Counted from the stretch's first letter, positions 1 to 44,719 are shown. The stretch: 64,000 bases of DNA from Botryllus schlosseri (GCA_051294905.1 CM119378.1:9424001-9488000); one strand, 5' to 3'. A program made the numbers and translations. Notes: a model not told the origin generated them from the sequence alone.

Positions 1-2
1 GG

Positions 3-953
3 ACCAGTTTTCTCATGCAGGTCTTTATTTTCGCCAGAGGACATTTCGCTCTGGATGTCAGTTGTAGTAGTCGCCATGCAACTATGGGCCGGATTCCTAT
101 CGTCATCCGGATAAGTGCATCCGCGAGAGTGTTCTGGACCAGTTTTCTCGTGCAGGTCCATCTTTACGCCAGCGGGGATTCCACGCTCGACGTCTTCCTT
201 AACGGTGTCAGCAGGCATTCCTGTCTCAACACCTATAGTTTCCCATGGGTTCTGTGTGACGTAAGTTGCTAATTTCAACTCGTCGCTCGCACCAGTGGTT
301 ATTTCCATCTCGGTACTCGCGCCAACGGCCATTTTCCGCTCCACGCTAAATTGGTTTGCAGCATCCATCAACCCATCGTTGGTTACAGTGTAGCTAGTAC
401 TGCTTCCAACTTCGGTTCCGTTACCTTGGTCATAATGATTCCCTTCGAGTAATGATGCTAAAGACAGCTCCTCATTTGCGTTAGACGGGGTTTTGAATTC
501 CGTAGTTACGCCTGGTAATTGTTGGACTTCCTCAATCCATTTCAGCCCTACGATATTAAGTGGGACTCCTGGTCCGGTTACAAATGGAACGGGCAGTCCA
601 CCAATATCAATCACTACAAAAGAGTCCACTTGGGACGAGCCACCTATTCCAGTTAATTCCATGTCTATTGGTTGACGTTTTTCCCAGCTTCGTGGATATT
701 TAGTTATAACGACCTTTTTCATTATCAAATTGGGGATGCTCCCCGTGTCAGCTAGGAATTTTGTACCAGTTGCTGTATCAATTAAATACAACAACTGGCC
801 TCCAAACAATTCCGTAAAGTCGGGCTGTAGGGGGTCATCCGGCATATCAAGAAATGTAAATAAGGGTAATGATGAGTTATGTACAGTTTTTGTATGTTGA
901 ATTATTAAATTGTCTGGGAGCTGATTCACCGGATCAATCAGCACCCCAAGGCG
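3..953 (-). CDS. pol: Retropepsin-type aspartic protease and start of Pol, in the -1 frame relative to gag; open to the window edge and missed by the ORF track
   Basis: Manual translation gives 317 codons without a stop: FLADTGSIPNLI (D-T-G at 749-741), flap-like LTGIGG, C-terminal NIVGLKWI. An acidic linker follows, with DLHEKTGP repeated at 45-aa spacing. Confidence 0.9.
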
Positions 954-959
954 TTTTTT
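916..959 (-). promoter_or_regulatory. -1 programmed ribosomal frameshift signal: slippery heptamer A AAA AAC (959-953), 6-nt spacer, hairpin (946-916)
   Basis: The heptamer is in the gag frame, 4 sense codons before the gag TGA, and a -1 slip lands in the protease frame. Hairpin GGG-U-GCUGAUU / AAUCAGC-U-CCC has 10 pairs, one U-U mismatch and a 9-nt loop. The same heptamer is used at MMTV and HTLV-1 gag-pro. Confidence 0.88.
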
Positions 960-3778
960 GAAAGTCGTATACCTTGATTCAGTTCCTCGTCCGTCCAATA
1001 TGAAGCATCATATTGACGCGGCCGATCATGATATTGAGGTTTCGTCCAGGCCACTTGGGTATTTCCCCCAGATGGACGTGCAGGTGGTCCATGAGGACCC
1101 CATTGATCCCTATCATGCCAGTGGGTTCTATCTCGGTTTTTTGGCCTGGTATCATAATAGGCTTCGCACAGAGCGGTCCTCTGTGTAAACGAGGGTGAAC
1201 CTTGAGCAGCCAGATATCGATCAAGTCCTTCAATTGTTAGTATGTTATTTCTCGCAAGGAACGGTTTCCAGTTTCGTTCTGCAGATTCTTTAACATGAGG
1301 GGGTACAGGTCGTGCTCGCCCACGAATTACCCATCCTAATTCCTCATCCCTAGCAAGAACCTTATCGTTTAGCCACAGTATGAACTTAGCCACGCAATTT
1401 CGGGATTGATGTCCCGGTGCCTTACAGTAGTAACAGACGGACAGGGATTGTCCCTGAGTGGGATTTAGATACAATCCTAGAGGAGCGAAAATATTCGGGT
1501 TTCCAAGAAAATTGTATCTCTCACCTTGACTATCCGCAATGTTGCGGGCTTCCTGGCTGCTGGACGGCGTAATTTGTGAGTTGTCTGCACCCATCCCGGA
1601 ATCTTGCGTATTCGCCACTCGCGGACTTCGGTTTGCGGTTTCCGGTCCTGGACTAGCGCGTGAAGATCTTGTTGTTCTTGTTGGCTGTCCGTTAGGTCTC
1701 GATGATGCGTTACGCCCATCCTGTTGGTGTACTGGCCTGGCCCTCGGGCCTTGTCCACGCCTACCAAATCCATTACCATTCATGATGCGGGTGGGGAATC
1801 GATTGTTGCGTGCTTTACGTTGAGGATTCCGACGTTGTAACGGTACCTGGTCTGCATTAGCAAGCTGACGCGGTGAGATCCCCCTAGGTGATCCAGGAGG
1901 TGTTGCCCCCCCAAAGTTATTCAGTGGTTGTAGGGGCGAGGGTGATTGTACCACCGGCGGTGGGGTGTCACCAGGTGGAGGAGGAGTGTTGAGCTGACTG
2001 TCCTCTCTTCCATGAGTGGGATAACTGTGCACTATTTGTCCTGCAGGTTGAACATTATAAATGTGTACTGGCGGCAATGACGGTTTTGTATCAAGGACTT
2101 CCTTTGTTTCCTGATACCTGGGGCGTGTCTCTTGTTCATCCAGGAACTCGGAGTTCCAAACAAGTTGTAGTTCCTCCGCAACGTCCCGCCAAGTTTTATC
2201 CTCTTCCCAGCCTCGCAACATCAGTCTGAGCGCTTCTGGAAGGCGTTGTCGTAAATTTCGGAAAAGACGTAATCCATCTGGATTATCCTCAATAAGACTA
2301 TCCATGTCTATTTCTAGTTGCTTCAAGGCGCTATTCAGCCGAGGTAGCGGCTCATCCTCCCAACGATAATTTCTGCGGAATTCTCCAATGATCTTTTCGT
2401 CATTTACCAAACCCTGGGGATTGGATAAGGAAAGAGATCGCATCACCGATTCCCACTCTGCTTCTCCCGAATTGGTATTAAAAAAATTTCCCAGTTGGGT
2501 AGCCTGTTTGTGTCGACCAGCAGCCCTCAATTTCTTCTGCAGTGCATTAGCCAAAATAACATCCACATCCGTATTTCCAGGACCGTGGCGTATTCTTCGC
2601 ATCGAATTCTCCATCCATTTTAGCAGTGGCATGTCACCAGGGTCCATCATTAGCTGAAGCATTTCTTTTTCTGATTGGATTTTAGCAGACACATTCAGCA
2701 ATGGGTCCGTAATACCGGAATAGCGGTGCGGCTGTTGTCGCCCTGACCTTTGGTTACGATCGTTAGGAGTAGAGGTAAAACGAGGCATATTTGGATAAGT
2801 TAGTTTGTTAGGTTGGCCCTCATTCGTATCTTCATCCGACAAATCTTCGGAACTTCGTGGCGACTTCCAAATTTCCCTTATTTCTCGAGCCAATACTCGC
2901 ATACGATCATCGTAATCGTCGTCTTTGGTGTCTTCCGCATCTTCTGTAGCATCACTCTGTTCTCTGAAGTTCACCCGTCGGGATTCGCCATCCGCACTTC
3001 CAGCTCGTCTTCGAGAATCCTTCTCCTTGTTACGACGTTCCTGCCATCCTCGATACCCCATATACTTATCTAAGGGGCTCTTTTTTGGTTTTGTCTCTAT
3101 TTGAGGCTCCCCATTTCTGAGGTCAATCAAGAAGGGATTAGTAGGTGTATATTTCTTTTGTTTGGCGCGTGCACCACTACCCACATGGAAACAAGGCGCC
3201 GTTCCCCTGTCGGTATCTGACAACGCGGTCGAGCCGGAAAGTGGTAGCTTAGGATAGACAGCCGTTACAGTATGACAATCCAAACCTTTGCGAACCGTCA
3301 TGGTTGGCCCTGGTGTTACGTCCCGTATTCGCTGCTCAGAGAGAGGAACGTAAGCTGGTGGGTCATCTTCCGGTGCATTTGGAGATACTGTCAAAACGGG
3401 AGATTGAATGCTATCTCGTGTAGCCTGTGCATGTGACTTTCCGAGCTCAAATTCTGAAGTAAGGATGTCATTCAGCGCGTCGGTGGAGACCTTCCCGCTG
3501 ACTTTTGTTGTGGCATCACAAACAGCTTTGAGGTCTGCTTGAGCTTTTCGAACCTCTTTCTTTGCCTTTTCTAACCCTTTCATGGTTTCCGGCAGAGCTG
3601 TCTTTACCTCTTTCAATAGCTCTGTTTGTTCAGCCACGTCCTTAGCCAGTTGTCTTTCTTGTCGCCGGACATCTTCATGGCGTTTTTGTGTAGCTTTAAG
3701 CAAGGTAATCCCTTGTTTGAGTTCGTCTGTTGCTTCTGACGGCTTTTTCCTTTTGAATGCTTTCAACATCCTTCGCAT
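938..3778 (-). CDS. gag: Gag polyprotein, 946 aa
   Basis: Basic N-terminus and coiled coil; PPAY (3350-3361) and YPKL (3245-3256) motifs; helical capsid-like region (LRQRLPEALRLML...TWRDVAEELQLVW); Pro/Arg-rich linker; CX2CX4HX4C knuckle CYYCKAPGHQSRNC (1394-1435). Lies downstream of a PBS and upstream of a protease. Confidence 0.92.
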   Translation of the reverse strand: MRRMLKAFKRKKPSEATDELKQGITLLKATQKRHEDVRRQERQLAKDVAEQTELLKEVKTALPETMKGLEKAKKEVRKAQADLKAVCDATTKVSGKVSTDALNDILTSEFELGKSHAQATRDSIQSPVLTVSPNAPEDDPPAYVPLSEQRIRDVTPGPTMTVRKGLDCHTVTAVYPKLPLSGSTALSDTDRGTAPCFHVGSGARAKQKKYTPTNPFLIDLRNGEPQIETKPKKSPLDKYMGYRGWQERRNKEKDSRRRAGSADGESRRVNFREQSDATEDAEDTKDDDYDDRMRVLAREIREIWKSPRSSEDLSDEDTNEGQPNKLTYPNMPRFTSTPNDRNQRSGRQQPHRYSGITDPLLNVSAKIQSEKEMLQLMMDPGDMPLLKWMENSMRRIRHGPGNTDVDVILANALQKKLRAAGRHKQATQLGNFFNTNSGEAEWESVMRSLSLSNPQGLVNDEKIIGEFRRNYRWEDEPLPRLNSALKQLEIDMDSLIEDNPDGLRLFRNLRQRLPEALRLMLRGWEEDKTWRDVAEELQLVWNSEFLDEQETRPRYQETKEVLDTKPSLPPVHIYNVQPAGQIVHSYPTHGREDSQLNTPPPPGDTPPPVVQSPSPLQPLNNFGGATPPGSPRGISPRQLANADQVPLQRRNPQRKARNNRFPTRIMNGNGFGRRGQGPRARPVHQQDGRNASSRPNGQPTRTTRSSRASPGPETANRSPRVANTQDSGMGADNSQITPSSSQEARNIADSQGERYNFLGNPNIFAPLGLYLNPTQGQSLSVCYYCKAPGHQSRNCVAKFILWLNDKVLARDEELGWVIRGRARPVPPHVKESAERNWKPFLARNNILTIEGLDRYLAAQGSPSFTQRTALCEAYYDTRPKNRDRTHWHDRDQWGPHGPPARPSGGNTQVAWTKPQYHDRPRQYDASYWTDEELNQGIRLSKNALGC

Positions 3779-4086: not shown

Positions 4087-4104
4087 TCCCCGTACTGGCC
4101 ACCA
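4087..4104 (-). promoter_or_regulatory. Primer-binding site complementary to the 3' end of tRNA-Ile(AAU)
   Basis: Minus strand reads TGGTGGCCAGTACGGGGA(T). This is complementary to ...ATCCCCGTACTGGCCA+CCA of metazoan cytoplasmic tRNA-Ile as I recall it, and includes the non-templated CCA. Located 30 nt upstream of the first ORF. Confidence 0.9.
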
Positions 4105-4354
4105 ATTTTGTTTTTATAGTGCAGCTCCACAACGATTGTTATGCGAGTAGTCCACACTTGTTCGGGTTACTTCCTAGTAAAGCGTTGCCTTTCGTTTGCT
4201 TTAGTATCCTGACGACGTCTGTAAATGGTGATTGGAGCAACAACAGTTGTAGGATTGTTTCTTCTCAAGTTGACAATGACCCTGGGGTCCAGAATTTTAA
4301 TCTACCTTTATCTACTGATAATCTATAAGCTTTAATACAACCAAATACTCCAAT
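4105..4354 (-). other. Putative R/U5 part of the 5' LTR
   Basis: 250 nt between the SL copy and the PBS, with no AUG, two ATTAAA hexamers, and an end of ...AAAACAAAAT abutting the PBS. Boundaries cannot be confirmed without the second LTR. Confidence 0.5.
4330..4354 (-). other. Genome-encoded copy of the stolidobranch ascidian spliced leader
   Basis: ATTGGAGTATTTGGTTGTATTAAAG versus the 24-nt Halocynthia-type SL ATTGGAGTATTTGGTTGTATTAAG (recalled from memory), differing by one inserted A. Not followed by a GT donor. Confidence 0.8.
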
Positions 4355-4365: not shown

Positions 4366-4427
4366 GCAGACGGAAATGTGGTAACTCCATGCAAAACTTG
4401 GTTAAAATTGGCATACACATCATCCAT
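4366..4427 (-). promoter_or_regulatory. Promoter-like block, copy 1 (upstream of SL/PBS/gag)
   Basis: ~62-bp block duplicated at 5750-5810 (gcagacggaaatg.ggtaactc.atg.aaaact...ttaaa.ttggcatacac.tcat.cat); contains an ETS-like CGGAAAT. Confidence 0.55.
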
Positions 4428-5244
4428 CAATTATAACACAAGGCATGGTTTAACCTATACATCATCATACACAATTAACAAACATTTTCAATACTCCAAG
4501 GTTTGTTTTCGCATATAATTGATGCGACGGCCTTTCCTGCCGTAAATATCAATACATTTCAAATATCAATTCCTATTCATCATAATATTCTTCAGTATAC
4601 TTGCGATTATAATGTTTCAATCAATTATAACATATCAACATTAAGGACGTCATGTCTTCAGTGCAATTAAAATCACTATGATCCTCTTAATCGGACCGCA
4701 TGATACTACCCTTAACTAAGATGCCACTTAATACAGGCATTGCAGATTGTTCAAACAGGTTTTAGTGTTCATTATTTAGTTAATTTAATGGTTTAGTTGT
4801 TCAAGATTTTATAAGATTTTATATTGTTTTTCATTAATTATTTATTTAGCCTATAATAAGGGTTCGCACCGTAAACTTCGGATTTTGTTTCCCTAAAACT
4901 AGGGCTTCAATCCCTAGGGTCCTGCTTAAAAATAAGGGCGTAGCAGTGTATAACGCCTTATATACATACTGTAGGGATGACGAGGCCCCACAGTATTAAA
5001 TTCATTCGCAGTTAGCAAAACAGCAATAATCCGTACAAACTGTAAAACATTTCTGAATATAGGTTGACCAAACCATTCAATAAACCGTGAACGTGACGGA
5101 ATCAATTTTCTGTGCAACAAAATACAATAAAATGACTCTATGCAAGACGCAATAGAGATTCTTGACCATTCTATATTCCGTAGGTCAGTTATAACACTTT
5201 ATATACATACATGAAAACAATAGCATTCCTGGGCTTAATATTTC

Positions 5245-5694
5245 TCATTGAACTAAGACATCTATAGTATCCTCAGGATAAAAGGGTTCCGTAGATTCGG
5301 CTTGTTCCTTCACCCATTCATCCGTGATCAAATTTTCCATAGGATGCATTCGAGCCATATAGTTGAACCACAAAAGTTTAGCCTTTTCATAATTTCCAGA
5401 GGCCATGTCTCTTATCATTTTATGGTTTTCTAGTATTCCTTGGTAGTCAATAACAAGGGGCTTCTCATCAGAAAGAGTTTCTTTAATTCGTTTGAAAAAA
5501 CATTTCAATCCAAGTTTGATATATTTGGGCGGGGTCCTTGACCATTCGTACCATCTATGAGAGGGGGGCATTCTTGCTTCATATCGTTCTTTGAATAACC
5601 AAAAATAAAAGATCAAATCTTGTTCCGCCACATTAGATCCAACTAGTTTGGTGACATCAACATCACCTTTATCATTTACTTCAGCGTTATTCAT
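5245..5694 (-). CDS. Accessory protein, family A (149 aa), unknown function
   Basis: Intact ATG ORF; motif H..I......NYEKAKLLW....RMHP.....DEW shared with three neighbours; closest to 7652-8047. Confidence 0.8.
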   Translation of the reverse strand: MNNAEVNDKGDVDVTKLVGSNVAEQDLIFYFWLFKERYEARMPPSHRWYEWSRTPPKYIKLGLKCFFKRIKETLSDEKPLVIDYQGILENHKMIRDMASGNYEKAKLLWFNYMARMHPMENLITDEWVKEQAESTEPFYPEDTIDVLVQ

Positions 5695-5749
5695 ACTTTT
5701 AATTTTTCTGAAAGCAATTAATCATCCAGTTAAGGTTCTATTTGGTCAT

Positions 5750-5810
5750 GCAGACGGAAATGGGGTAACTCAATGTAAAACTCAATTAAATTGGCATACA
5801 CGTCATACAT
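5750..5810 (-). promoter_or_regulatory. Promoter-like block, copy 2 (upstream of a family A gene)
   Basis: Aligns with 4366-4427; contains CGGAAAT and a CRE-like TGACGT. Confidence 0.55.
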
Positions 5811-5860
5811 GATTAATAGACATTCAACCTAGCAAAAAATACAATATACAATCCAGGCAT

Positions 5861-6316
5861 TCATTGTTCATAATCACATCCATTATATTTCATTTTATGT
5901 ATCAGTATAGCAGCTCTAACATCAGAGGGAAAAGTATCATTAAAGAGTTTATCATTGGTATAAATACAAAATCCGTTTCTATCAGAACAAGGCATTCTTT
6001 CTAGTACCCATTCTTCAGGTACAACATCCGAAGCAGGATGTAATCCAACACAGAAGACAAACCAACAAAACTTTGCATGTTCGTAATTTTCAAACAGTAT
6101 CATGCGGGCGATGGCTAAATGCTTTTTGTATAGCGCATCAAACAGTTTGTCGGATACTCTCAGGTTGCAAATCCTCAAGTAAGGTGTCATAAATATCTCC
6201 AGTTCATCCCGTGTGGTTGCAGCCCATCTGCTGAAGTCTTTGTGTTCATATTTCTTCTCAAAGGAATCGAAGAAAACGTCAAGTTCATGCTTTACTCTAG
6301 CAATTTTATCACCCAT
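5861..6316 (-). CDS. Accessory protein, family A (151 aa)
   Basis: HLAIARMILFENYEHAKFCW...LHPASDVVPEEW; closest to 8053-8508. Confidence 0.8.
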   Translation of the reverse strand: MGDKIARVKHELDVFFDSFEKKYEHKDFSRWAATTRDELEIFMTPYLRICNLRVSDKLFDALYKKHLAIARMILFENYEHAKFCWFVFCVGLHPASDVVPEEWVLERMPCSDRNGFCIYTNDKLFNDTFPSDVRAAILIHKMKYNGCDYEQ

Positions 6317-6452
6317 ATTTTCTTAATATAGAGAATTTTACGTTGATTATTGGACCGGAAACTTTTCTTACTGACATTTTTAACACATATAAGTATAACA
6401 ACACTTCCAAAATATTCAATAATTGTGATGAGCATACTGGATGCATAGTAAT

Positions 6453-6908
6453 TTACTTAGCATACATATCAGTCCAGTTTCTTGCCGTTCTTTGATAGCA
6501 ATCATAGTCATCCCTATACAGTCTAGCGCTCTCAACATCCATTGGATCTTCTGGATTAGGGGAAGCCAATAATGACGAAATCGAGACCAATACTTTTCCC
6601 AACGTTAAAGCGGGTGACCATTCATTTGCAAGAATGTCAATACATATGGTACCCTTACGGCTTATATTCGGATGGAAAATCTTGGTTTCAAATTTGATCT
6701 TCGGAGGCTTGAATGGATATTCCGTTGGAAATTCAATTCTAAGAAGAAATGTTCCTTTTTCATATGGTGTTTTTGGTGGTCCTCGCAAAAGTGCTTGCCA
6801 AACATAGATATCCGACTCGTCCAATGGCCCTGCTTGCAAAATTACAGGATTTGTTCGTATTTCTTGATTAATTTTTCGCCGTTCAACGTATAATCTATGT
6901 TTTGCCAT
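6453..6908 (-). CDS. Ubiquitin-conjugating enzyme E2 (UBC4/UBE2D-like), intronless
   Basis: FPTEYPFKPP, HPN motif, and catalytic Cys in FHPNISRKGTICIDIL...WSPAL. The ATG is at 6908; the ORF track start at 6932 is a TTG. Confidence 0.95.
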   Translation of the reverse strand: MAKHRLYVERRKINQEIRTNPVILQAGPLDESDIYVWQALLRGPPKTPYEKGTFLLRIEFPTEYPFKPPKIKFETKIFHPNISRKGTICIDILANEWSPALTLGKVLVSISSLLASPNPEDPMDVESARLYRDDYDCYQRTARNWTDMYAK

Positions 6909-6968
6909 TCGATGCAGACTTATACTATCCAATAAAACTTACACACATAAAAGAAAAGGGGAACATCA

Positions 6969-7493
6969 CTAATTCAATCGTTTATCCATAGCGTACATGT
7001 CACGTGAAAATCCGGCAATAGTTCTGCTAGTAATGTTCCAATCTTCATCAACATTAGCTATAGCCAATACATATCGTAGAAATAAGTACAAATAGTACGC
7101 AGGACTTTCTCCAAAGTTTTCTTCCACAATGCGCTCCAGTACTTTTTTTGCGCATTCCAATTGTTCCGCCACCTCATGGTCCCGGTATAACCAGACAAGA
7201 AAATCTTTCAATACATACTCCATGTCATTGGCTGTCAACTTCGGAAAGTTTTCTATTCTTTCTTTTATTCGTTCATGTACAACTCCCATCTTTAGCCAAG
7301 CAACTCTGCTGTCAGGTATCGTAGGGTATAGACACTGTCTGAACTTGTTCCGATTCAATTCCTTCTTCTGGGGATCTTTAGGCACATACTCATACTTTTC
7401 ATGATTAACTTCCAACATGTCACAATCAAAGATCAAATAAATTATTAGTGTCTTAAAATTCCTTACACAAAAAACCCAAACATTATTAAACAT
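6969..7493 (-). CDS. Accessory protein (174 aa), unknown
   Basis: Intact ATG ORF inside the array with an SL-like relic 9 nt upstream; no recognised domain. Confidence 0.7.
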   Translation of the reverse strand: MFNNVWVFCVRNFKTLIIYLIFDCDMLEVNHEKYEYVPKDPQKKELNRNKFRQCLYPTIPDSRVAWLKMGVVHERIKERIENFPKLTANDMEYVLKDFLVWLYRDHEVAEQLECAKKVLERIVEENFGESPAYYLYLFLRYVLAIANVDEDWNITSRTIAGFSRDMYAMDKRLN

Positions 7494-7651
7494 TCAACGA
7501 ATCTTAATCAGCAAACCAACTTAATTACACACATAAAAGTTTTTAATTCTAGTTGTTATATTAGATATAGTACATGGTTTTTGAAATCACAAAGTTCTTT
7601 ATATCCAATTGATATAGTGGAAAATTTGATGCATTATATGTATCATTTCAG

Positions 7652-8047
7652 TTAATCATCTTTCAAACATCCTTTTATCCATTGTTCTGAAAAGTTCTCC
7701 TTCATGGGATGCATACGAACAATATGTTGGTACCAAAGAAATTTGGCTTCCTTATAGTTTCCCAGTGTAATAATTGCAATCCTATTATGTTCTTTGATAG
7801 CAGCATGATAACCCAGAGCCTTGCCTTGCGGAGATAATGCACTCCCGTAAACTTTGTCAACATACAGCTTCAGCATTCCAACAATGTCATTGGGTCTTGT
7901 CATAGCCCATCTTTGCCATCTGTCGGAAATTTCCACATCTTCTTCATAATATTTACAGAACATGTCAAAATAATATTTCAAGTCGCACACTGCAGATTCA
8001 TATCCCATTCGCAATGATTCCTGGTTACTTCTATTTCTTTGAGACAT
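7652..8047 (-). CDS. Accessory protein, family A (131 aa)
   Basis: HNRIAIITLGNYKEAKFLW...RMHPMKENFSEQW. Confidence 0.8.
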   Translation of the reverse strand: MSQRNRSNQESLRMGYESAVCDLKYYFDMFCKYYEEDVEISDRWQRWAMTRPNDIVGMLKLYVDKVYGSALSPQGKALGYHAAIKEHNRIAIITLGNYKEAKFLWYQHIVRMHPMKENFSEQWIKGCLKDD

Positions 8048-8052
8048 TCTTC

Positions 8053-8508
8053 TTAATCGTGTAATATAACAATTTTCGAACAGGCGTCTTCTAAAATCGG
8101 AATAGCAACAGTTTCAAATTCTCGAGCATTCAGAAGTAATGTTGCAGAATCTTTTAATTCCATTTGTGGTAATCTTTCATCCAGAAATTCTTCTGGTAGA
8201 TACTTATGAGCCGGATGTAATTTTAGAACAAGTCCAAACCATGTATATTGGGCCAGATCAAAATCTTTTGTAACAAAAACGCGAGCAATATCACTATGTG
8301 CGTCATAAAGCTTATCAAAAAGCTTTTCTGTCACATTCGCAAAACAATGATGAAGGTATTTCTTTATTAATTTTTTGAATTTTTCCTTTGGGGTATTTTT
8401 CCATATCTCAAAATTTTGATGATGGTATTCCTGTTCAAACTCATCATAGTATTCATTAATTTGTTTCTTGGCTAGCGTAATTTCCCAATTCTCTAATACT
8501 CTAGTCAT
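8053..8508 (-). CDS. Accessory protein, family A (151 aa)
   Basis: HSDIARVFVTKDFDLAQYTW...LHPAHKYLPEEF; an SL-like relic directly abuts the ATG. Confidence 0.8.
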   Translation of the reverse strand: MTRVLENWEITLAKKQINEYYDEFEQEYHHQNFEIWKNTPKEKFKKLIKKYLHHCFANVTEKLFDKLYDAHSDIARVFVTKDFDLAQYTWFGLVLKLHPAHKYLPEEFLDERLPQMELKDSATLLLNAREFETVAIPILEDACSKIVILHD

Positions 8509-8637
8509 CTTAATACAGAATAAAATACTTTAAAATCATATGTTCAATTTTACGCGCAAAAGTAACTAGTAACGTTATGCATTATACATATGCATCAAGA
8601 GCATTCATGCCACAAAATAATAGTCCTGCCTGCTCCA

Positions 8638-10329
8638 TCAAGCTCTATACACCTTTATCTTTTCCAGTATTGTTTCACCACAAATGTTGCATCTTTCGGT
8701 ATTTGTTGCACATTTTTCACAACTACATAAATGTCCACAAGGTATGAAAGTAATTTCACTTTTGTTTCTCTTGCAATTTTTGCAAAGCACAACCTCTTGT
8801 ATTTCTTTCAAACTTTGCGCGATCTCATCCACCGACATTGTTTCTGCAACTGCTGCTTCTTTCGTTTCTTTGTTGTTGTTTACTTCGTGATTATTTTCAG
8901 ATATACTATCGCCTTGTTGTGTTGTTTTCGTTGGACTGGCGGTAATTGTATTTACTGTCTCTAGTAAATCCTGAATTATATCACCAGTAGAGAAAGGATC
9001 ATTAATCTGTCTATTTATAGTTCCTTCTATTTGATCTCTCGTAAATCCCATGTCTTCCAGTTGCATCCTGTTTATGTATTGTCTAGATAACCTTGGTCGA
9101 TTATGGTTCCTTCGTATCTCCTCTCGTGGTGCATCAAGACATATTGCATTCCTTATCGATGGTCGATTGAGATTGGGATGTTCATCTCTTAGTCGTAAAA
9201 CGAAATCAATACCTTTCATTTGCAAAACATATTCACAACCAGGAAACCACTTTGCATGTTCTGTCCACGGCTCATCATTGTAGTTCCAGTTTTGTAATCC
9301 TCCATTGCAGTAAAAGCATTTCGCCCTGTCCGAATCCCCTAAATAATACATACCCGCTTTAGCCAATTGTTCCGTTGTTGCGAGGATCCTGGGCCATTTT
9401 TCATTAAACGAAGATATTCTTTGCTGTAACGATGTCATATGCAAATTTATCGGGTAAAGGCAAGGGAATCTTTCCACCAACTGGAGTTGTTCTTCTGGCG
9501 ATGGATCCGGAGGTTCTCCCCTATTAGTAGTTAACCTTTCAATTTTTATTTTAAGTTCATTATCTGCCTGATTTCTCTCGGAGTCTGTCAAGGGCATATT
9601 TCCTGCATACTCGTTATTTGCCATTTTGCATTTTGTAAAATGTCTTTTATGTTGTTCAAGGACATTATCAGTGGGTGCCCAATTTCTCAGTACTCCTGAG
9701 CATGAAAAACATTGCGCTCTGTCAAGGTTTCCCAGGTAAAAAAATCCCTGTTTTGCCAATTCCCCTACCAAGTATGGAGTAGGATAGGAAGGCCATTTGT
9801 CAAAGGTTCTTCTTCTCTCTAGTTCACTCCTCAAATTTGCTGATCGCAATGAAGTCTCATGTTCTTGGTCACAAATGTTCGCAAACACGGTTTGTGGTAA
9901 GGGACATTTTTCCTCTTTGATAGTCGGTCTTTGCACATTCCGATTAGTTTGCTGACTTCTTGTAGTAAGGTTAAGGTGGCACCTCATTTGTTCAAAAAGG
10001 AGCCTCCTTAAGTAATTTGAAATAGGCAAGTTATAACCATGTTGTATGGTCACCATGTCACAAGTAGATTTATGCCACTTGTCATCAAAAGGATCATCTC
10101 CAGTGACCCATTTTTCCACAGATACGCCACAGCAGTAACATCTTACTCTATCTTGAAATCCTGTCCAATAGAAACCAGCAGCGGCTAGATAGCTCGGTAT
10201 CACAGGAGTTTCTTTCGAAAAATGTTTGAACGTTGCAAGTCTGTAATACTCAACCCGGTGATCTCCAGGTGGAATATAAACGCAATTATGTCCAGGAGGA
10301 TCACGATCTCTTTTCATCAGAATGCCCAT
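8638..10329 (-). CDS. iap: Inhibitor of apoptosis protein (3 BIR, UBA-like segment, RING), 563 aa, intronless
   Basis: Three BIR repeats (LAAAGFY...C..C...W...D...H...C pattern), LEDMGF UBA-like segment, C-terminal RING CKNC...PCGHLCSCEKC...CNIC ending IKVYRA. Confidence 0.96.
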   Translation of the reverse strand: MGILMKRDRDPPGHNCVYIPPGDHRVEYYRLATFKHFSKETPVIPSYLAAAGFYWTGFQDRVRCYCCGVSVEKWVTGDDPFDDKWHKSTCDMVTIQHGYNLPISNYLRRLLFEQMRCHLNLTTRSQQTNRNVQRPTIKEEKCPLPQTVFANICDQEHETSLRSANLRSELERRRTFDKWPSYPTPYLVGELAKQGFFYLGNLDRAQCFSCSGVLRNWAPTDNVLEQHKRHFTKCKMANNEYAGNMPLTDSERNQADNELKIKIERLTTNRGEPPDPSPEEQLQLVERFPCLYPINLHMTSLQQRISSFNEKWPRILATTEQLAKAGMYYLGDSDRAKCFYCNGGLQNWNYNDEPWTEHAKWFPGCEYVLQMKGIDFVLRLRDEHPNLNRPSIRNAICLDAPREEIRRNHNRPRLSRQYINRMQLEDMGFTRDQIEGTINRQINDPFSTGDIIQDLLETVNTITASPTKTTQQGDSISENNHEVNNNKETKEAAVAETMSVDEIAQSLKEIQEVVLCKNCKRNKSEITFIPCGHLCSCEKCATNTERCNICGETILEKIKVYRA

Positions 10330-10569
10330 AGTTTCAATTCGGTCATTTCTCGGTGTAATTGCTTTCGATGGAACAGGCGTTCAATAATACAGATCAAAAT
10401 GTCTAAATATAACCATACCAATCCAACATTCTAGTAATAATACATAAACATTCTGTTAAAAAAAAATATCATTATATAAGATTTCTCGAGGTTCCAAATT
10501 AGCATTGGTTCGATAAATTCCATGGATTGGGTGTAAAGTCATTATTTAATTGTCAATATGTGACAACAG

Positions 10570-13006: not shown

Positions 13007-13110
13007 TTTTATAATTTAAGTAAATCCTTTATACAACATATTTAAATTCAGTTACATAGTACCATATTACAATTATTACACCAATTTTCAATTTATATAC
13101 TTAATCATTT

Positions 13111-14160: not shown

Positions 14161-14246
14161 GAATTAGATAACCCACTTTGTTACTCTATACCTTCGAAAA
14201 AGTGTCCTTTGTAAGTCAAAATCTTATTTACAGTCGTTGTCATTAC

Positions 14247-31935: not shown

Positions 31936-32039
31936 AACTTATTAAAGATATTTTTTAAACATCTTCCATGAGTTCAAAAGATGTCCTTCAATGAAGTGCA
32001 AAATATATACATTTGTCGACAGAAATGGATATATATAAG

Positions 32040-32170
32040 ATGTCCTGTAGGACATCCTCAAAGATATCCTGATAGACATCCTCAAAGATATCCTGATAAT
32101 CATCCTCAAAAATATCCTGATGGAGATCCTCAAAGATATCCTGATAAACATCCTCAACGACATCCTATAA
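32040..32170. repeat. 24-bp tandem repeat (gacatcctcaaagatatcctgata-like), ~5-6 copies
   Basis: Directly visible, just upstream of the mucin-like ORF. Confidence 0.85.
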
Positions 32171-34271: not shown

Positions 34272-37200
34272 AGTGCGCAGTGCAGCTTAGAGTGAACATG
34301 GGTCAGGCAATAGTAATCTGAGCCCCCCACGCGGTACGAATACGACCAGTTGAGGATGAACTTGCTTCCCGTGTAGAAATGTGAATTGAAAGGAGTTTGA
34401 AATGAGTGATGGATTATTGGCAAAAAAGTTTTGGAGACATTGGTTCCACCGCTAAAGCTGAGCAAGTGTAAAGAGATGATCAAAAATTTATGTAAGCAAG
34501 ACCAACAATTTTGACAAAATTAAATGACTATAACTTTTTTTTTAAATTACATCACGTCAAAGTTTGGGAACCACTGGTATAGTGTTCTGAAGATGAATGG
34601 TAGCGGCCCTTGAGGTAGCAACGATTCACTTACTGTCAAATGATATGATAAAGAACGCAGCTGTCACACAGACGTCAGATTCATAAACAAAATTACCTTG
34701 CAAGCTCCAAGAACAGTTAGAAATCGTCCCACTTTGGTTGTAATTGTTGTACTCTCGGCCGTAGGATTAGCCACTTTACATGCTCCTTCAAAGATAATAT
34801 AAGTAGATCAGGGGCTGCATTACAAAACAATGCGGCAAATCGGAATCTCCGCCAGTGGTAACAATCTTTCTCGAATGTGATCACCCCATAGTGTCAAAAT
34901 TGGCATTTCAAAACATTCCCGACTCAACACCGAGTTGCGCAATTAACGCACTTGCTTGTGATTTTGCCATGTCGGCAATGTCAGTAGAAAATGATTTCAA
35001 ATGAGGGCTTATAAGGCTGTGTGGTCAGCAACGATTTGCAATTTAGCTGTGATCTTTCACAAGAAGGGAAAGCAAAATACTTTAACTCTGTAAAAATGCT
35101 CCCGAAGGCATTGTTATCGAGGGTTTTGTAATCTCGACTGTAATATCAGTAACAACTTACGTGTAATAGTCTTGTAAAGATTAAAATTTTGAAAACTTCT
35201 TTTTTGTCCATTTTTGCTTCTTTGACCTTTTAGGCTGAACAATTGCCACACATCTTTTACAGCTATGCTTGTCATGATATTTCTGACCGTTGAAGCCAAT
35301 TGTTCACCGTAAAGTCCTTTCAGAGCAGATACCTGTAGTACAAAATACAAATGGCTCTGCCTTACGATAGTGGTGTGTACCAGAATGAAAAATAACTAGA
35401 TCAGCCCAAAAATAAGTAGGGTTTCGATATTTTTCGAATTCACTAATATAGCATTAATTCATCATGGTAAAGTACATGCAAAAATGACGATTATACCCCC
35501 AAACCCCCCTCTGGCTACGCGCCTGCATAAACATCAAATAACTTGATGGAACGTTGATCTTGACGAGAGGTTAGATCAGGGTGGGCAACTTCTCCAGTCG
35601 GCAGGCCGGATATAGGAAAATTAAGTACTTGGGCACCGGATTGCTGAATCGATGCATTATTCGTCCATTTATCCACAAGGAATATATCGTATTTAATGAA
35701 TGTCTTTCAACGACAGCAATGTCACTTCGAAGCCATTTCTCGCCGATAATGGCGAATACAATGTGGATTTGAGAATAACATTGTCATGTAGGCAATCTCG
35801 ATACAGAATTCATGCGGCCTGCGTCCTCTACCAAATTCGAAAAGTGGCCTGCAACCCATTTTGAGTTGGCGCCCCTGGCATAAGCGGTGCCTTACAAAAA
35901 CCTAGAAGTGTGCCGTGCTCCAAGTCGGCGGTTACGGAATCAAAAATAGGAAATATCAGCCTGCTGACCATTGTAGTCGACAAAAATCATGATTACTACA
36001 GACCACATTAGGTTTGATTGCATCGTTAATGCCGATAATGCAAGTCTTCTCGCTTCAACGAACTTACGCATAAGCTCCACTCTCGCAACGCTGCGCATAC
36101 ACGTATAATATAATAACATAGTCACTAAAATTTGACGTAGTAAGGAATTAGTGGGGAATCTCGGCAAACTGGGGCGGGGCATTATCATGTAGGACAGAGA
36201 ACTGCCGGCGGGCCGGACAAAATCACTTCGCGGGCTGTATGCTGCCTGCCCCTGGGTTAGATACTCCACCTAAGTTTGCTCTAATCGACAAAATCATACC
36301 AGTTCAGATTTCTTGCAATCGCCGTCAGTCAAGTTCTTTTCCAGTTGTTCCAGCTGAGATACGGTTTGACAGGGGTTTTCAATAAGATCTTCAGCAAGAT
36401 TGGGGCTGTTGTACTGTGTTTATTTTTTTTTCGTTGATGATGTGACCTTTAATTAGATCCATCATCTGTTTCATCTGCTTGGAGCTGAGGTCCATCATCT
36501 GGTTCATCTGCAACTTGATGTCTTTACGCATCAGAGAAATATACAGAGTGGTCATTGTGTGCAGATGTTGGAGTTGATGAAGAACATGGAGGAGCTTAAA
36601 AAATTATTTGAATTCAAGAAAACTGGATTGATCATATGCGATAAACTTACCATTACTTTGTGATAGGCCTTGTTGTTGACAGTCAGAATTTTGCAGTTCA
36701 ACATTGCTTACAAATGAAGGATCGTCTGGAAAATAGAGCGACTCTATTGCTTAAATTCGAGAATGAATCAAAGTGTTGGGAGCTTACTGCATTAGTTGAT
36801 TCCCTGCAACTGGCCGCTACATTCAATGTTGGGATCATGCTGTTCTTGAACACTCTCCTCACTTGATGATGGCAAACTTGCATTTGAAGCATCATTAACA
36901 AGAGCACTCTTGCTTGTCACACTTTCATCGCCAGAATCAGGAGGTGACCGCACTCTTGGAGTTGGTGTAGGCATGCCTTGTGTCTGAATACTTGGATTAC
37001 GTTTTTTCTTTGAAGGAACAGCATCATCTACAAAGTATGAAAGTTATACATATATCACTTCTGCGTATAACATATTAGGCAGAATAACAGTGTACGCTAT
37101 ATACCTTGATTATCAGATGACATGGACTTGTAAAAAATCTTTTGGCGGCTGACGTTTTCGGTTAGGGCAGGCTATTATTGTCTGCAACTGCCCTCATATC

Positions 37201-37419
37201 ACGAAAGGCCTTGACCCATAAATCTAAAACAGATGGATAATATAGATGGTAAGTTTCCAGATTTATCAAACTACTGGATTTGTAAACAGCGCAACTAGAT
37301 CTAGAATTACTCAAATTTGAAAACTCGCACAAACTTGAAAAAACGATATTGTATCGCACACGCAAACATAGAACTGCTAGGTAATGAACCACTGTACGCA
37401 AGTAACGGTATATATAGCT

Positions 37420-37812
37420 TAGTGGTTCCCAACCTTTTTCGGTGTCAGGGCCAAATTTAGAATTTCAGAGTATATTGTTGGGGCCGCACGAATTCGTGAC
37501 TGCTTTAGATCAATAAAAAGTTCACAAAATAGAGTAAAATCGAGGAGAACTGCTGCTGGGTTTTGCCTCAGGGGGCTCAGCGTATTCAACCGTGAGTCAC
37601 GTGTTGTACATCTATTCGTAGATTAGTTATCAATACCTATATACAGTAGTTAGCACTCTACTCAGAACTTTTCTGCAATCCTAATTAACAACTCCAAGCT
37701 AAGCAAGAGAATTTTATAAATATAAATTTTATTTTATATCATAAATCGATTTCTTTAAATTTTTGTGGGGGACGCAAGACGGCTAGCTCAAGGCCGCGGT
37801 TGGGAATCACTG
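37420..37812. mobile_element. hAT-type MITE
   Basis: Ends tagtggttcccaacc / ggttgggaatcactg; 8-bp TSD atatagct / gtatagct. Confidence 0.75.
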
Positions 37813-39041
37813 GTATAGCTACATGCTACAGTCTCATTTTTGTCATGATTCAAGCCATCCCAACACTGGTACTAATGAGTAACGGTAAACCTTCACAAAT
37901 TATGAGTTGACTTACCGGATGAGCATTTGATACGTATTTTGTACAGAGTCCAATTGCCCGTGTCATATTTCACTTGATGATGATGAAGCGACCCGTCCCG
38001 CCAAATCGGCGGTTCTAGCTCGCTTGAACCGTAGCCACTCTTTATGGTACTGCCTACGTCTGTGCTTCCCCGTCTTATTTTATATCTGGGCATTACGGTA
38101 CCACGTTGTAGCTGAGCTCCCACTACACTATTATAGACAAAAGTACAAGAACATTCGATCACAATGAATGATTTTAGCGACCAACATCTGATGATATTAT
38201 ATAATCCAGCACTGTCACAATAGCTTATAAGATATTCGCAAAAGTGCAAACCAAGTTCTATACTTTGTGACATTATACCATACACTATACCTATGATTCG
38301 TATCAAGCATATATAAATTACCATCTACAGCTCAGTTTTCAGTAATCCTCTTAAGGAATATGGTTGTTTGAGCCTTAATTTACCACGATCAATTCCAGAA
38401 CGCAACTAAACCTAACATACGACTGCGTAGCTGTAAGCCTCCATTACTCCATTACGAGAGCGCTTTATCTGTCAGTATTTCGCGCCGAAACTTATGTGAA
38501 CTCGCAAGGGAGAAATGGCCTCTCGTTTACACTCCGGATCAGAAGCCGGAGTCGTAGCAGGATTTCAGCCGGACTGGATGCGGATTCTGAATTAATTTCG
38601 ACAGTCGGATTTTGGCAACATTCTTAATTATAATCTTAAATACGATATCATTATTTTAGCAGAAGTTTTTTGGACGCAGAACCGGAAATTCTCCAGCCGG
38701 ATTCTGTGGACTTTCAAATTTCCTTCCAAAATTTGGGAACCGACCAATTCCAATCAAATACAACCCAACCACCGAAAGCAGCGGAGGTGGCGGAGCGCGA
38801 GGATGCGGGCTAATATGACATTTAATTTTAGTCTGCAAAATTGCAAGAAAGAGCGTGACACTAGGTGGAACATACGGTAGTGACACAGGTGATTAATCGC
38901 CCCATGAGAGTAAAAGTTCAATAAAATCTACTGTACATTTATAAACACCACTCTACCATAATAGGAAGCAATAATCGAATTTGATATTCCTAACAAATAT
39001 ATTTTCAGCATTCGACAAAATTTGGCCAAGAAAAGTTGTGG

Positions 39042-39585
39042 TTCAGCACAAGGTATGCACATAGCAATTTACAACGTAGCTACGTTGCAAATTGCTATGG
39101 TATGCACAGGATATGATTTGGACTTGACTGGACAAGAACAAGATATATTTAAGCCGTGCTTCAGCACAAGGTATGGACAAGATATGATTTGGACTTGACT
39201 GGACAAGAACAAGATATATTTAAGCCGTGCTTCAGCACAAGGTATGGACAAGATATGATTTGGACTTGACTGGACAAGAACAAGATATATTGATGTCGTG
39301 CTTCAGCACACAAGGTATGGACAAGATATGATTCAGACTTGACTGGACAAGAAAAAGATATAGGTAATTCGTGCTTCAGCACAAGGTATGGACAAGATAC
39401 GATTTGGACTTGACTGGACAAGAACAAGATATATTTAAGTCGTGCTTCAGCACAAGGTTTGCACAAAGATATGATTTGAACATGACTGGAGATGAAAAAG
39501 ATATATTTAAGTCGTGCTTCAGCACAAAGCATGCACAAGATATGATTTGAACCTGGCTGGACAAGAAAAAGATATCCTGACAGGT
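39042..39585. repeat. ~71-bp minisatellite, ~7 copies, directly after the stop codon of the secreted SU-like gene
   Basis: gtgcttcagc recurs at 39156, 39227, 39298, 39371, 39442 and 39514. Confidence 0.9.
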
Positions 39586-40767
39586 TCAAAAGACATCTAG
39601 TGTTTGCTGGGCATATAACACTTCCTTAAAGGCCAATGCCGTCTTTAAATTTCCTATTGAATTTCGACAAACCTTTTGATTTTTTTTACGTTCACATTCT
39701 ATGCTGCCTTGCAACATAGTCGGAAAATTTCTCTTCCCCATTATCCGTTGAGTATCATTATTCAGATGTTCGCGGAGGGCGTAAATCCTCAATCTAAACC
39801 AAGTATGACCATCAAAGTTTGCTGGCCTCTCCCTGGGGCCCGTCTCATTTCGAGCCTTCAACCACACGATGTCGTGATGTAATCTGGGTAATTTGACTCC
39901 CGCTGGCCATTGACTGTAGGAATAAGTTTCTTGCATTCTCGTCCCTAATCCTCTTATGCTATTATCTATTTCCATGACCACAAAGTCTCTGGACAGTATA
40001 TTTACTGCCAGATCATCTGTATAAAATGAGCATCCTATGCATTGCATCTGGTTGTCTTCTCCGTGCACACATACGTTAAATTCGCCTTTATTGACTCTCC
40101 ATCCCGCGATTTCTTCGAAACGCTGCTGACACCTTGCTGTCACTGTTGCATATTGTGCCAAGATATTCATCACTGATAACTTGTACACCGTCAACAGTTG
40201 ATGTATAGTAACTTGTGGAGTAGCATTAGGAGATATCATCCGAAGGATCGGACCTGGCACAGCCATAGTGCCATGTTCTTCCCTTCCTACCACATACTTC
40301 CATGTATGTACTAAGCCAAAGTTATTCTTTCGACGATATGTTGTGGTTCTGGTAAAGGCTGCCAAAGTAATATCGGGAGATATTCTTGATAGTTTCCGAT
40401 TGCACCCGCACTCTCTTTCGTATTGTCTAACATTGTTCCAATACCTCTTGTCAGACCCCGAGGGTGCAAATAACTTGTACAATTGATCTTGGCTAGCTCG
40501 TGTTGGACCAAATTTGGGCGTCTCTTTGTATATTGGAAAATTATTTTCCGTTTCACCTATTGGCCAACTCTCGTTCAATTTGAATAGTCGATTAAGGCGG
40601 ATGTATCTGAGACCTTGATACCGGAACGTTGTCCATCCTGTAAGATTAAATGTTAACCTCACACTCATAGCAGACAGGGGCAATAATTGGCCATGAGTTT
40701 GAAGATATCCTCGGTGTAGTGTTAAGGCTACTGCCAGCACAATCCATAATTTAAGGTAACGATTCAT
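39586..40767 (-). CDS. Secreted paralog of the Env surface subunit (393 aa)
   Basis: Signal peptide, no TM. RYWNNVRQYERECGCNRKLSRISPDIT matches Env RYWTSVQDFERTCLCQRRLGQITPNIS, and KLSVMNILAQYATVTARCQQ matches KLIMIRLFESYSAVEASCLQ. Confidence 0.85.
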   Translation of the reverse strand: MNRYLKLWIVLAVALTLHRGYLQTHGQLLPLSAMSVRLTFNLTGWTTFRYQGLRYIRLNRLFKLNESWPIGETENNFPIYKETPKFGPTRASQDQLYKLFAPSGSDKRYWNNVRQYERECGCNRKLSRISPDITLAAFTRTTTYRRKNNFGLVHTWKYVVGREEHGTMAVPGPILRMISPNATPQVTIHQLLTVYKLSVMNILAQYATVTARCQQRFEEIAGWRVNKGEFNVCVHGEDNQMQCIGCSFYTDDLAVNILSRDFVVMEIDNSIRGLGTRMQETYSYSQWPAGVKLPRLHHDIVWLKARNETGPRERPANFDGHTWFRLRIYALREHLNNDTQRIMGKRNFPTMLQGSIECERKKNQKVCRNSIGNLKTALAFKEVLYAQQTLDVF

Positions 40768-43465: not shown

Positions 43466-43500
43466 GTCGTCATTTCCGTCCTGGAACCTTAAAACGGGGT

Positions 43501-44427
43501 TTACAAATGTGGTAATACAGGGGACCCCTCAAATTTGTCAAAATTATACCGTGGATCATTGTGTATGGTGCGCAGGAGTGCCAAGAATCGGTCAGTCTTT
43601 TGATGTTGACGTTTCCACAAAAACTCCCCTACGTAATCGGCTAAAAGGTGACGTGCTAAACCACGAGACCTATGTAAGTGATATTTAAGCTGTCCCCAGG
43701 CCCCCTCGATTTCATTAGTACAAAAAGCTGTCCGGGGATCTTTAAACCATCGGGAGTGGTCCACTACGCCGTGTATATAACCCTTCCCCCAGCTCTCTAT
43801 GCCCTTGTAGGAAGGATAAGCATCGGTTAGAATTGTGGACCCCTCTGTCACATTTTCTACTATGAGTTTTCGAAATACTTCAGCAGTTCTGTCAGAAGTT
43901 ATTTCAATGAACATTTCTCCGGTGGCTTTGTCTATTCCTCCAAACCCCCAAATGGCTTTAACAGCTGGTCCTTTACCAGAGGCAGCCCGGCGCTTGGCTA
44001 AGTGCGTTTCATCAATAATTACGCAACCGCCTTCCTTTCCCAAACGTCGCTTGTTCCTGTGAAATTCGGCCGTACAAAGCTTTCGCAATTTGCCGCACCA
44101 GGTAACCGTTGAACGTGGGCTAATCTCAGCTTCATGCGAAATTTGGGTTTGCAACGCGTCATGGGACCAAAAGTAGAACAATATTAATAATTTGGGAAGT
44201 TCTACCTTGCTTCCCGCGAATATCGAGTGTTTCCGTATAGTCGCCGTAGTGTCACAGGGGTTGCATCGCCACCTAAATCCATCATCGCCTGTTGACGTAA
44301 TTTCCTCTTTCATTATTTTTTTACATCGCTTGCATTTCATCCTTCGCACCAACAACCCGTGATTTCTCAGAAATATCACACAATCCCGTGTGTTTAGCAA
44401 TGCACCCGATTCGACCAAACTCAACAC
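43501..44427 (-). CDS. Second IS1595/ISXO2-like (Merlin-type) DDE transposase (~308 aa)
   Basis: CKRC...WRCNPC, IIDETHL / LTDAYPSY / TNEIEGAW, YVGEFLWKR. GTG start; similarity to 11483-12430 extends upstream (DTRKRT versus ESRKRK), so the true start is uncertain. No TIRs seen. Confidence 0.88.
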   Translation of the reverse strand: MLSLVESGALLNTRDCVIFLRNHGLLVRRMKCKRCKKIMKEEITSTGDDGFRWRCNPCDTTATIRKHSIFAGSKVELPKLLILFYFWSHDALQTQISHEAEISPRSTVTWCGKLRKLCTAEFHRNKRRLGKEGGCVIIDETHLAKRRAASGKGPAVKAIWGFGGIDKATGEMFIEITSDRTAEVFRKLIVENVTEGSTILTDAYPSYKGIESWGKGYIHGVVDHSRWFKDPRTAFCTNEIEGAWGQLKYHLHRSRGLARHLLADYVGEFLWKRQHQKTDRFLALLRTIHNDPRYNFDKFEGSPVLPHL

Positions 44428-44719
44428 ATTGTATGTTCTTTTCCGCGTATCTGCGCAAGTAAATAATACGACATGTGGCGTCGATCAACTCCCCATCGTC
44501 TTTGGCGGATCAAACCCCCCTTTTTCTTGGCGTTTCATGTGTACTGACTCTCTCCTATTTTAATCCCGTGTTATTCCTATGACAGGGTTATTTTTTTCAC
44601 TTGTTCCTTACCAGGCCTAATGATTTTTTCACCCTCATTTCAATGTACATGCAAAACACTTACTATCCCACTACACACCCATTTTATGGTGCAACAACTA
44701 TTGCCGCCTAGACCTCCGG

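Follow-up and report, generated by a model that had tools for sequence, protein, structure and literature searches.

The window analysed here, 64,000 nucleotides of Botryllus schlosseri DNA (GCA_051294905.1 CM119378.1:9424001-9488000), holds most of an element of 47,623 bp, which extends from position 44739 to 2,884 bp past position 1 (the sequence continuing past position 1 is referred to as L011). The order of its genes is Merlin transposase, Env, a second glycoprotein, 15 cargo ORFs, a copy of a spliced leader, a tRNA primer-binding site (PBS), gag and pol (Table 1). All 25 ATG-initiated ORFs of at least 100 aa within positions 1-44530 lie on the minus strand, as stated in a first-pass annotation of this DNA. 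No Rfam match was detected in positions 1-45000, and ARAGORN gave no tRNA.

Table 1. Features of the element (window coordinates, unless L011 is named)
Feature	Position	Strand	Remarks
Target-site duplication, 8 bp	44740..44747		partner at L011 7109-7116, beside right end
Left terminal inverted repeat (TIR), 23 bp	44717..44739	-	begins GG; 17/23 positions complementary to right TIR
Polypurine-tract-like run	44515..44528	-	~210 nt inside left end; candidate plus-strand primer (putative function)
Merlin/IS1595 DDE transposase 1	43501..44451	-	Pfam PF12762, E 7e-10; dN/dS 0.12
Env-like fusion glycoprotein, 838 aa	40855..43371	-	dN/dS 0.20
Glycoprotein 2, N-terminal part	39612..40767	-	paralog of Env surface region, E 4e-9
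Nested insertion, 7.7 kb	31920..39611		missing in other copies; breaks glycoprotein 2
Glycoprotein 2, C-terminal part	29593..31919	-	Ser/Thr-rich mucin stalk and TM anchor
Interior, mostly non-coding	19467..29592		largely common to other copies; nested host repeats
Cargo ORFs at 18945, 17284, 16238, 14247, 13111 (LRR membrane protein), 12500	12500..19466	-
Merlin/IS1595 transposase 2	11483..12430	-	PF12762, E 3e-17; 39% identical to transposase 1; dN/dS 0.16
Cargo ORFs at 10570, 8638 (IAP), 8053, 7652, 6969, 6453 (E2), 5861, 5245	5245..11229	-
70-bp block, copy 2	5750..5818	-	copies 83% identical
70-bp block, copy 1	4366..4435	-	just upstream of leader copy; candidate promoter (putative function)
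Copy of host spliced-leader exon	4331..4354	-	candidate RNA start / terminal redundancy; ~230 nt before PBS
tRNA primer-binding site, 18 nt	4087..4104	-	begins TGG
gag, 946 aa	938..3778	-	dN/dS 0.20
Slippery heptamer A-AAA-AAC, -1	953..959	-	hairpin 3' of heptamer
pol start (protease)	1..1007	-	frame runs on into L011
Right TIR	L011 7117-7139		2.9 kb past position 1; GG to CC, imperfect

The PBS, which presumably corresponds to tRNA-Ile, is exact in nine of ten copies and carries one mismatch in the tenth. A different 18-mer, also starting with TGG, occupies the same position in lineage E, which fits a switch of primer. The Gag protein contains PPAY and YPKL motifs (read in the sequence) and a zf-CCHC match (E 5e-4) just below the Pfam cut-off, while a Retrotrans_gag-like capsid was indicated by an Atlas lead only. 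The slippery heptamer and the hairpin 3' of it are present in 12/12 rows (11 distinct copies). Pol is a single open frame of 1205 aa, comprising protease, RT (with YIDD), RNase H and a Tpt1/KptA domain (PF01885, E 2e-10), and stops at L011 7390, 273 bp from the right end. No integrase domain was found after RNase H; Pol ends in Tpt1, whose residues R26, H27, R69 and R122 are invariant in 6/6 rows and, by position, would correspond to the Arg-His-Arg-Arg catalytic set. Enzymes of this type strip 2'-phosphates from RNA, including those at junctions, and some of them are described as capping 5'-phosphate ends of DNA or RNA (PMC6182162).

Thus, the PBS, the late domains and Zn knuckle of Gag, and the -1 frameshift into a protease, all named in the first-pass annotation, were recovered. 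It had also suggested that RT/RNase H/integrase, a second LTR and a target-site duplication might lie past position 1; the RT, the RNase H and the duplication (of Merlin type) are there, and the integrase and the LTR pair are not.

In its sequence the Env-like protein combines a signal peptide and a TM segment with long helices, a hydrophobic peptide and, at aa 480-485, the site RRRRKR. Searches of Pfam and PDB with this protein gave no match, the Atlas leads (0.88-0.90) were of low recognition, and both structure models were of low confidence (pLDDT 36 and 34). Of the furin-cleaved class I Env described earlier, the cleavage site, peptide, helices and TM segment are present; by this anatomy the protein is class I-like and may have a class I fold. 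The ORFs of 393 and 710 aa proved to be parts of one glycoprotein 2 gene (1165 aa in copy C10), split in the window copy by the nested insertion.

The frame of transposase 1 opens at a splice-acceptor-like AG near 44451 and its first ATG is at 44340, downstream of the point where homology to transposase 2 begins. Transposase frames opening at such a site were seen in three lineages, which suggests that the transposase may be spliced from an upstream exon, in this lineage across the junction of the element's ends.

Pfam confirmed the E2, the IAP (three BIR domains and RING), the LRR protein and the two DDE_Tnp_IS1595 ORFs recognized at first pass. The three paralog families reported there correspond to one family of four members, all within 5245..11229, and to two weak pairs (E 4e-7 and 2e-4). 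Of the roughly 20 accessory ORFs first listed as intact, not all are intact or part of the element: the genes are real, but two of the ORFs are the halves of glycoprotein 2, and those at 37893 and 39161 belong to the nested insertion, i.e. lie outside the element proper. An ortholog of the IAP was found in two lineages only, and the cargo is therefore variable; its linkage to the element was established from two tiled copies and the IAP search. A G-rich tract at 14983 is a further possible polypurine tract.

Ends, copies and relatives of the element

Self-comparison of positions 1-44745 detected neither an LTR pair nor a long internal repeat. Across the assembly (495.5 Mb), more than 25 loci carry both the Env block and the gag block in one orientation; their sharp ends correspond to window position 44739 and L011 7117, and not to the extent of 1..44530 proposed before. 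Most copies are 37-41 kb in size and some span 55-73 kb. Exact target duplications border 25 of the 26 copies in which both ends were paired (8 bp in 24 cases, 9 bp in one; one copy has none), and the duplicated sites are all different among copies. Two of the duplication-bearing copies are members of lineages whose Pol identity is 84% and 56%, and deleted copies of 8, 14.7 and 23 kb are likewise flanked by duplications. The integrated form is thus one TIR-bounded unit with 8-bp duplications. Other gag-pol copies also carry Env and cargo, which goes against the refuting condition named at first pass (gag-pol copies lacking the array and env) and agrees with its view of one giant retro-element with Env and DNA-virus-like cargo, here present in many copies. 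We regard the composite architecture as well established, close to certain.

Merlin transposons are defined, in the accessible text of PMC8101967, by TIRs starting with GG and duplications of 8-9 bp. Both features are found here, together with two ORFs for a transposase of the DDE_Tnp_IS1595 type. The transposase, previously grouped with the accessory genes, is likely the integration enzyme rather than cargo.

The best 64 of 1508 Pol candidates vary in identity between 51 and 100%, and 57 of them are free of stops within the match. A family transposase on the same strand is located near 60 of these 64 loci (53 upstream within 85 kb, seven at 129-138 bp downstream; four loci have none), although a few of the distant pairings may involve neighbouring copies. 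The pairing took 66 of 127 transposase matches, leaving out the second transposases of lineage A, free Merlins and fragments. Identities of Pol and transposase track each other (Spearman 0.95; the copies are non-independent), and a transposase lies less than 4 kb upstream in 53 of 54 Env matches.

The RT-RNase H region scored best with the Ty3 profile (2e-54), followed by those of CaMV (6e-52), foamy virus (3e-32) and gammaretroviruses (5e-27), and the RT of CaMV was the best single-sequence PDB match (E 5e-19). The RT passes straight into a Ty3-type RNase H; the retroviral tether domain is absent. In a quick RT tree of 75 of 78 rows (three were dropped as too short; caulimoviruses and retroviruses were not included), all eight rows without an integrase match, some of them partial proteins, formed a single branch (SH-aLRT 99) that left out the remaining 67, most of which are gypsy-like, the sequences having been cut with a profile built from the integrase-less clade itself. 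The RT is thus of Ty3/caulimovirus grade and not retroviral by profile, and falls in an integrase-less clade in the tree.

Several relatives were identified in other datasets. In P0001, P0019, P0020 and P0022, RNase H is followed by Tpt1, with no integrase match, and P0020 has an added EEP nuclease; P0033 combines RNase H and dUTPase. A homolog of Env at 61% identity is present in Logan data, and two scans of IMG/VR gave no relative. The metagenome contig L093 carries a PBS-like site (presumably of Met type), gag, a PR-RT-RNase H frame closed by a stop, and an Env whose TM subunit is homologous to that of the element (E 3e-10). No Tpt1, LTR pair or integrase was found and no transposase ORF was seen within its 13.9 kb. 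This gag-pol-env arrangement without integrase indicates that the integrase-less enveloped clade is wider than the genome studied, and Tpt1 is not basic to the clade, because L093 is without it. Capture of Merlin may have been a later step.

Selection, gene-order permutation and RNA

Comparison with copy C10 gave dN/dS below 1 in 22/22 ORFs tested (some aligned in part only). The most constrained region is RT plus RNase H (0.06 vs C10, 0.04 vs copy C16); values for the cargo ORFs range from 0.09 to 0.53. Selection thus maintains RT, Gag and Env as well as the two transposases and the cargo.

The copies are strongly mosaic. Across leader, gag and protease of ten copies (502 informative sites), neighbour incompatibility was 0.247 vs 0.531 in shuffled data, and none of 500 shuffles was as low; compared with copy C5, stretches of 0.2-1% divergence are interrupted by patches of 5-26%. 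Template switching between co-packaged RNAs leaves such a pattern; gene conversion could also yield it.

The seven loci with a downstream transposase read cargo-PBS-gag-pol-transposase, followed by Env in six of them. In the permuted copies that were read, glycoprotein 2 follows Env (one copy) and a homolog of cargo ORF 12500 is located upstream of the leader (two copies). Judged by gene order, these loci represent the circular order of the window element opened at another point. The ends of this permuted lineage (E) were not found with the probes used (0/6 paired probes matched, and two of 12 probes fell in host repeats).

The leader motif was found once, at 4334-4354, allowing up to three mismatches (0.02 expected by chance), and the first 22 nt of the leader copy are invariant in 14/14 rows. 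The first-pass annotation had linked the gag leader to the accessory genes by SL motifs and a 62-bp promoter block; sharing of the motif was not borne out, and the shared block exists as a repeat of 70 bp in two copies. ATTAAA within the leader copy of the window was rejected as a poly(A) signal, as 11/14 rows read ATTAAG. A splice donor after the leader copy was also rejected, being unconserved.

Four RNA runs were compared with the 8-kb deleted copy, which contains both ends (3-6% of each raw run was read). Thousands of reads match nothing but a stretch of about 30 nt, preceded (5') by template-switch adapter and followed (3') by varied mRNAs; this stretch is thereby identified as the host spliced leader. 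The host thus trans-splices a leader, whose sequence is probably of the stolidobranch ascidian type. Single-cell reads, nearly all of them second mates, pile up on the sense strand of the element (the direction assumes a 3' library) just upstream of the leader copy and halt there, as expected if a transcript ends near its presumed start. RNA depth over gag-pol reached about 0-3 in the two raw runs; at the termini, RNA depth was near zero. A right-end-to-left-end junction, in a read or a contig, was not seen among the 15 listed of 112 joints, with 3-6% of the raw runs read. Joints skipping 8045 correspond to empty sites of a high-copy repeat around the 8-kb copy.

Proposed replication cycle and alternative explanations

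A linear copy cannot give genomic RNA of the LTR type, because the PBS is mid-element and Env lies upstream of gag. Once the ends are joined, the order becomes the standard one and the polypurine-like run comes to lie after pol, which favours a caulimovirus-like cycle with an added transposase step. The run is identical in copies C5 and C10, shortened in the 8-kb copy C16 and interrupted by one C in lineage B; in lineage E, no such run was seen in the gap between pol and transposase.

We consider it fairly probable that the element is a pararetrovirus-like virus with an envelope, that its reverse transcription yields a circle, and that a captured Merlin transposase, acting through the TIRs, opens this circle and inserts it. 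The working genome would be circular, with the right TIR next to the left one and the order PBS-gag-pol-[transposase]-env-cargo-promoter. A terminally redundant RNA, longer than the genome, would start near the leader copy, cross the junction and end near its own start, as in caulimoviruses. Gag and frameshifted Gag-Pol would package this RNA, Env and glycoprotein 2 would allow cell entry, and tRNA-primed reverse transcription with template switching would produce a circle with one copy of each region. The transposase would then open the junction and insert the circle, and might also release circles from integrated copies. More speculatively, Tpt1, which occupies the position of integrase, could cap or clean nucleic-acid ends, perhaps at strand gaps, and the IAP, E2 and LRR proteins could counter host defences.

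The cycle is inferred, no circle-junction read having been seen. It draws on (i) the duplications, (ii) the lack of integrase and LTRs, (iii) the pairing of Pol with transposase, (iv) the permuted order, (v) selection, (vi) mosaicism, (vii) the PBS switch, (viii) the RNA pile-up, (ix) contig L093 and (x) circle formation by an IS1595-family element of bacteria, whose TIRs measure 25 bp and whose repeats measure 8 bp (described in PMC5704250). Counted against it are the missing junction read, low gag-pol RNA, unmapped ends of the permuted lineage, the partly conserved polypurine tract, the low-confidence Env models and the copies of 55-73 kb. To our knowledge, a reverse-transcription template of 40 kb has no precedent.

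A giant Merlin transposon that moves as DNA only is unlikely, and heads the alternatives. The retro-element and cargo would be captured, useful passengers, e.g. forming particles that carry element DNA between cells, and the RT would not copy the whole element. Ends and footprint that are entirely Merlin-type, the duplications around deleted copies and the scarcity of gag-pol RNA all suit this explanation, but it leaves RT plus RNase H as the most constrained region, as well as the conserved PBS and frameshift site, to be accounted for, and neither fine-scale mosaicism nor a permuted lineage is expected under plain cut-and-paste.

Next in order, and again improbable, is reverse transcription of the whole element without excision, from an end-to-end transcript of the integrated copy that is joined, or template-switched, from its 5' to its 3' end; Tpt1 would process the RNA junction, and insertion of the product would fall to the transposase. 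The fusion of Tpt1 to Pol, with Arg-His, Arg and Arg at positions fitting the catalytic set, and the reported removal of junction 2'-phosphates by this enzyme (PMC6182162) speak for it, and an excision step becomes unnecessary; however, the promoter-like block, the leader copy and the RNA pile-up are all mid-element, beside the PBS, RNA depth at the termini is near zero, and L093 has no Tpt1.

Third, and also improbable, an exogenous virus with a circular cycle, spreading horizontally, would have inserted into the germline repeatedly, the integrated copies being dead ends that never excise. The many lineages, with their mostly open Pol frames, the selection on Env, the heavy recombination and the relatives in other datasets are in line with this possibility. 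Near-identical copies at many sites fit amplification within the genome instead, as do deleted copies with their own duplications, although the deletions could post-date insertion. Finally, the host repeats nested in the interior might speak for an ordinary LTR retrotransposon lying next to a viral relic of other origin, or for an artefact of assembly. The copy survey refutes this explanation, as more than 25 loci share the order and the sharp ends while their duplications differ, and its probability is negligible.

The circular, transposase-inserted virus might further represent a new family of giant, enveloped, infectious, pararetrovirus-like animal viruses with RNA-templated genomes of 20-70 kb, in which Merlin transposase and TIRs replace integrase and LTRs, Tpt1 is fused to Pol, and a copy of the host leader serves as RNA start and terminal redundancy; to this extended proposal we give an even chance. 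The element crosses the split between retro-elements and DNA transposons, combining retroviral replication genes with the integration system of a DNA transposon, and shows that integrase and LTRs can be exchanged for another DDE module. If read as proposed, it would be both class I and class II. It points to animals as hosts of enveloped RT viruses that are caulimovirus-like and have no integrase. The upper size of reverse-transcribed genomes would rise to at least 40 kb, and both a viral Tpt1 and the use of a host spliced leader find a natural setting in it. Annotation pipelines based on LTRs would overlook such elements.

Comparison with known systems

On the features tested, the element does not belong to Retroviridae, Metaviridae, Caulimoviridae, Troyka or DIRS. 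Unlike Retroviridae, it has no LTRs, integrase, tether domain or retroviral-type RT. Env-bearing Metaviridae, among them the Tor elements, share with it Gag and PR-RT-RH of this grade and a tRNA PBS, the RT-RNase H scoring best with Ty3, but they have an integrase, paired LTRs and 4-6-bp duplications, none of which is found here. The combination of PBS, gag, frameshifted pol and env is also that reported for errantiviruses, tunicate elements included, in the accessible text of PMC13524379. No earlier description of an element like the present one was found in the literature, most subscription journals, Repbase and the supplements of PMC13524379 and PMC8101967 being outside the scope of the search.

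DIRS elements are not known to carry Env and have a circular intermediate. As in the present case, an RT of LTR type is accompanied by another recombinase in place of integrase; however, DIRS use a tyrosine recombinase and are described as having no protease (PMC12440569). A Pfam match to tyrosine recombinase was absent from the 23 ORFs scanned. The giant Ty3/gypsy elements Burro, which carries a BIR domain, and Ogre differ in being LTR retrotransposons; they are comparable in size, retro-elements of 25-30 kb or more being listed in PMC10175614. Troyka/Kuafuorterviruses are likewise a deep animal RT lineage present in stolidobranch ascidians (PMC12440569, PMC11673190), but in those described the LTRs are CG-ended, an integrase is present, the duplications are of 3 bp, Env is absent and the motif is non-YXDD. 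Identity with them was rejected on the absence of LTRs and integrase, the 8-bp duplications and the YIDD motif.

The transposon superfamily Merlin shares with the element the imperfect, GG-starting TIRs, the 8-9-bp duplications as well as a DDE_Tnp_IS1595 domain, but the main text of PMC8101967 describes a single transposase and contains the term 'reverse transcriptase' 0 times, whereas here the RT is constrained. Caulimoviridae also combine protease, RT and RNase H without integrase and use tRNA priming, and the circular genome and redundant RNA proposed for the element would be further likenesses; in contrast, they are non-enveloped plant viruses of 7-10 kb with a movement protein and no integration step (PMC7660458), while the element has Env, is about 40 kb long and integrates precisely. 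Teratorn, a piggyBac-alloherpesvirus fusion of fish for which excision to a circle has been proposed, is similar in that a whole virus-like genome is bounded and moved by a cut-and-paste transposon; it differs in joining a dsDNA herpesvirus to piggyBac, in place of a reverse-transcribing element and Merlin, and the accessible text of PMC10175614, from which this account is taken, mentions no fusion of a retro-element with a DNA transposon. Integration of the element thus works like that of Teratorn, and its replication probably like that of a caulimovirus.

Relatives of the element and a leader variant

An 8-kb copy of the element (L071) retains both TIRs, a duplication, the purine tract, the leader and the PBS, and its gag and pol frames are open; it carries no transposase, Env or cargo. 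In one lineage, the transposase-to-pol span extends over ~59 kb and ~74 kb in its copies (see the table).

Elements of 10–14 kb were also observed in the genome assembly of the source animal, which have in common with the giant element only ~330 bp of the left end plus the right end. These possibly represent a non-autonomous satellite lineage.

A 7-nt segment ending in AG, which in other copies follows the leader copy, is missing from a single copy (L026). This loss looks as if trans-spliced RNA had been copied back, and is also compatible with a 2-nt microhomology deletion.

Coordinates of the described features (C, chromosome-level sequences of the assembly; L011, continuation past window position 1; L013, another locus)
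Feature	Location	Remarks
8-kb copy (L071)	C16:623892-631928	
Long-span copies	C2:32310577-32369585; C9:2838315-2911911	
10–14-kb elements	C1:748741-758853; C3:6128649-6141619; C7:23758737-23770008; C13:15715340-15727492; C2:31767402-31781277	
Nested insertion	window 31920-39611	
Foldback element	window 33611-34279	182-bp arms, 96% complementary
320-aa ORF	window 48085-49047	resembles C-terminal part of non-LTR retrotransposon RT, by eye
Sugar-transporter-like ORF pieces	L011 4171-5143; L013 2431-3402	by eye
IAP inverted pairs (examples)	C6:10856748-10859586; C4:18247029-18249869; C7:5234138-5241093; C3:22472817-22480138	

Nested repeats and host flanks

One end of the nested insertion carries 12/24-bp tandem repeats and the opposite end 71-bp repeats with a 43-bp palindrome; in the permuted lineage E, a similar palindrome adjoins 80-bp tandem repeats. 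The foldback element was found in other loci too.

Short repeats abound in the host flank around the 320-aa ORF, for which a Pfam scan gave no match. The host flank past the right end contains the sugar-transporter-like pieces, which are intron-poor and duplicated.

Paired IAP homologs

Searching the assembly revealed numerous inverted pairs of IAP homologs across many chromosomes, the two members lying ~0.6–8 kb apart. The homologs show 50–59% identity, with a single open frame spanning the BIR region. They possibly constitute a further multi-copy foldback element, with an IAP in each arm.
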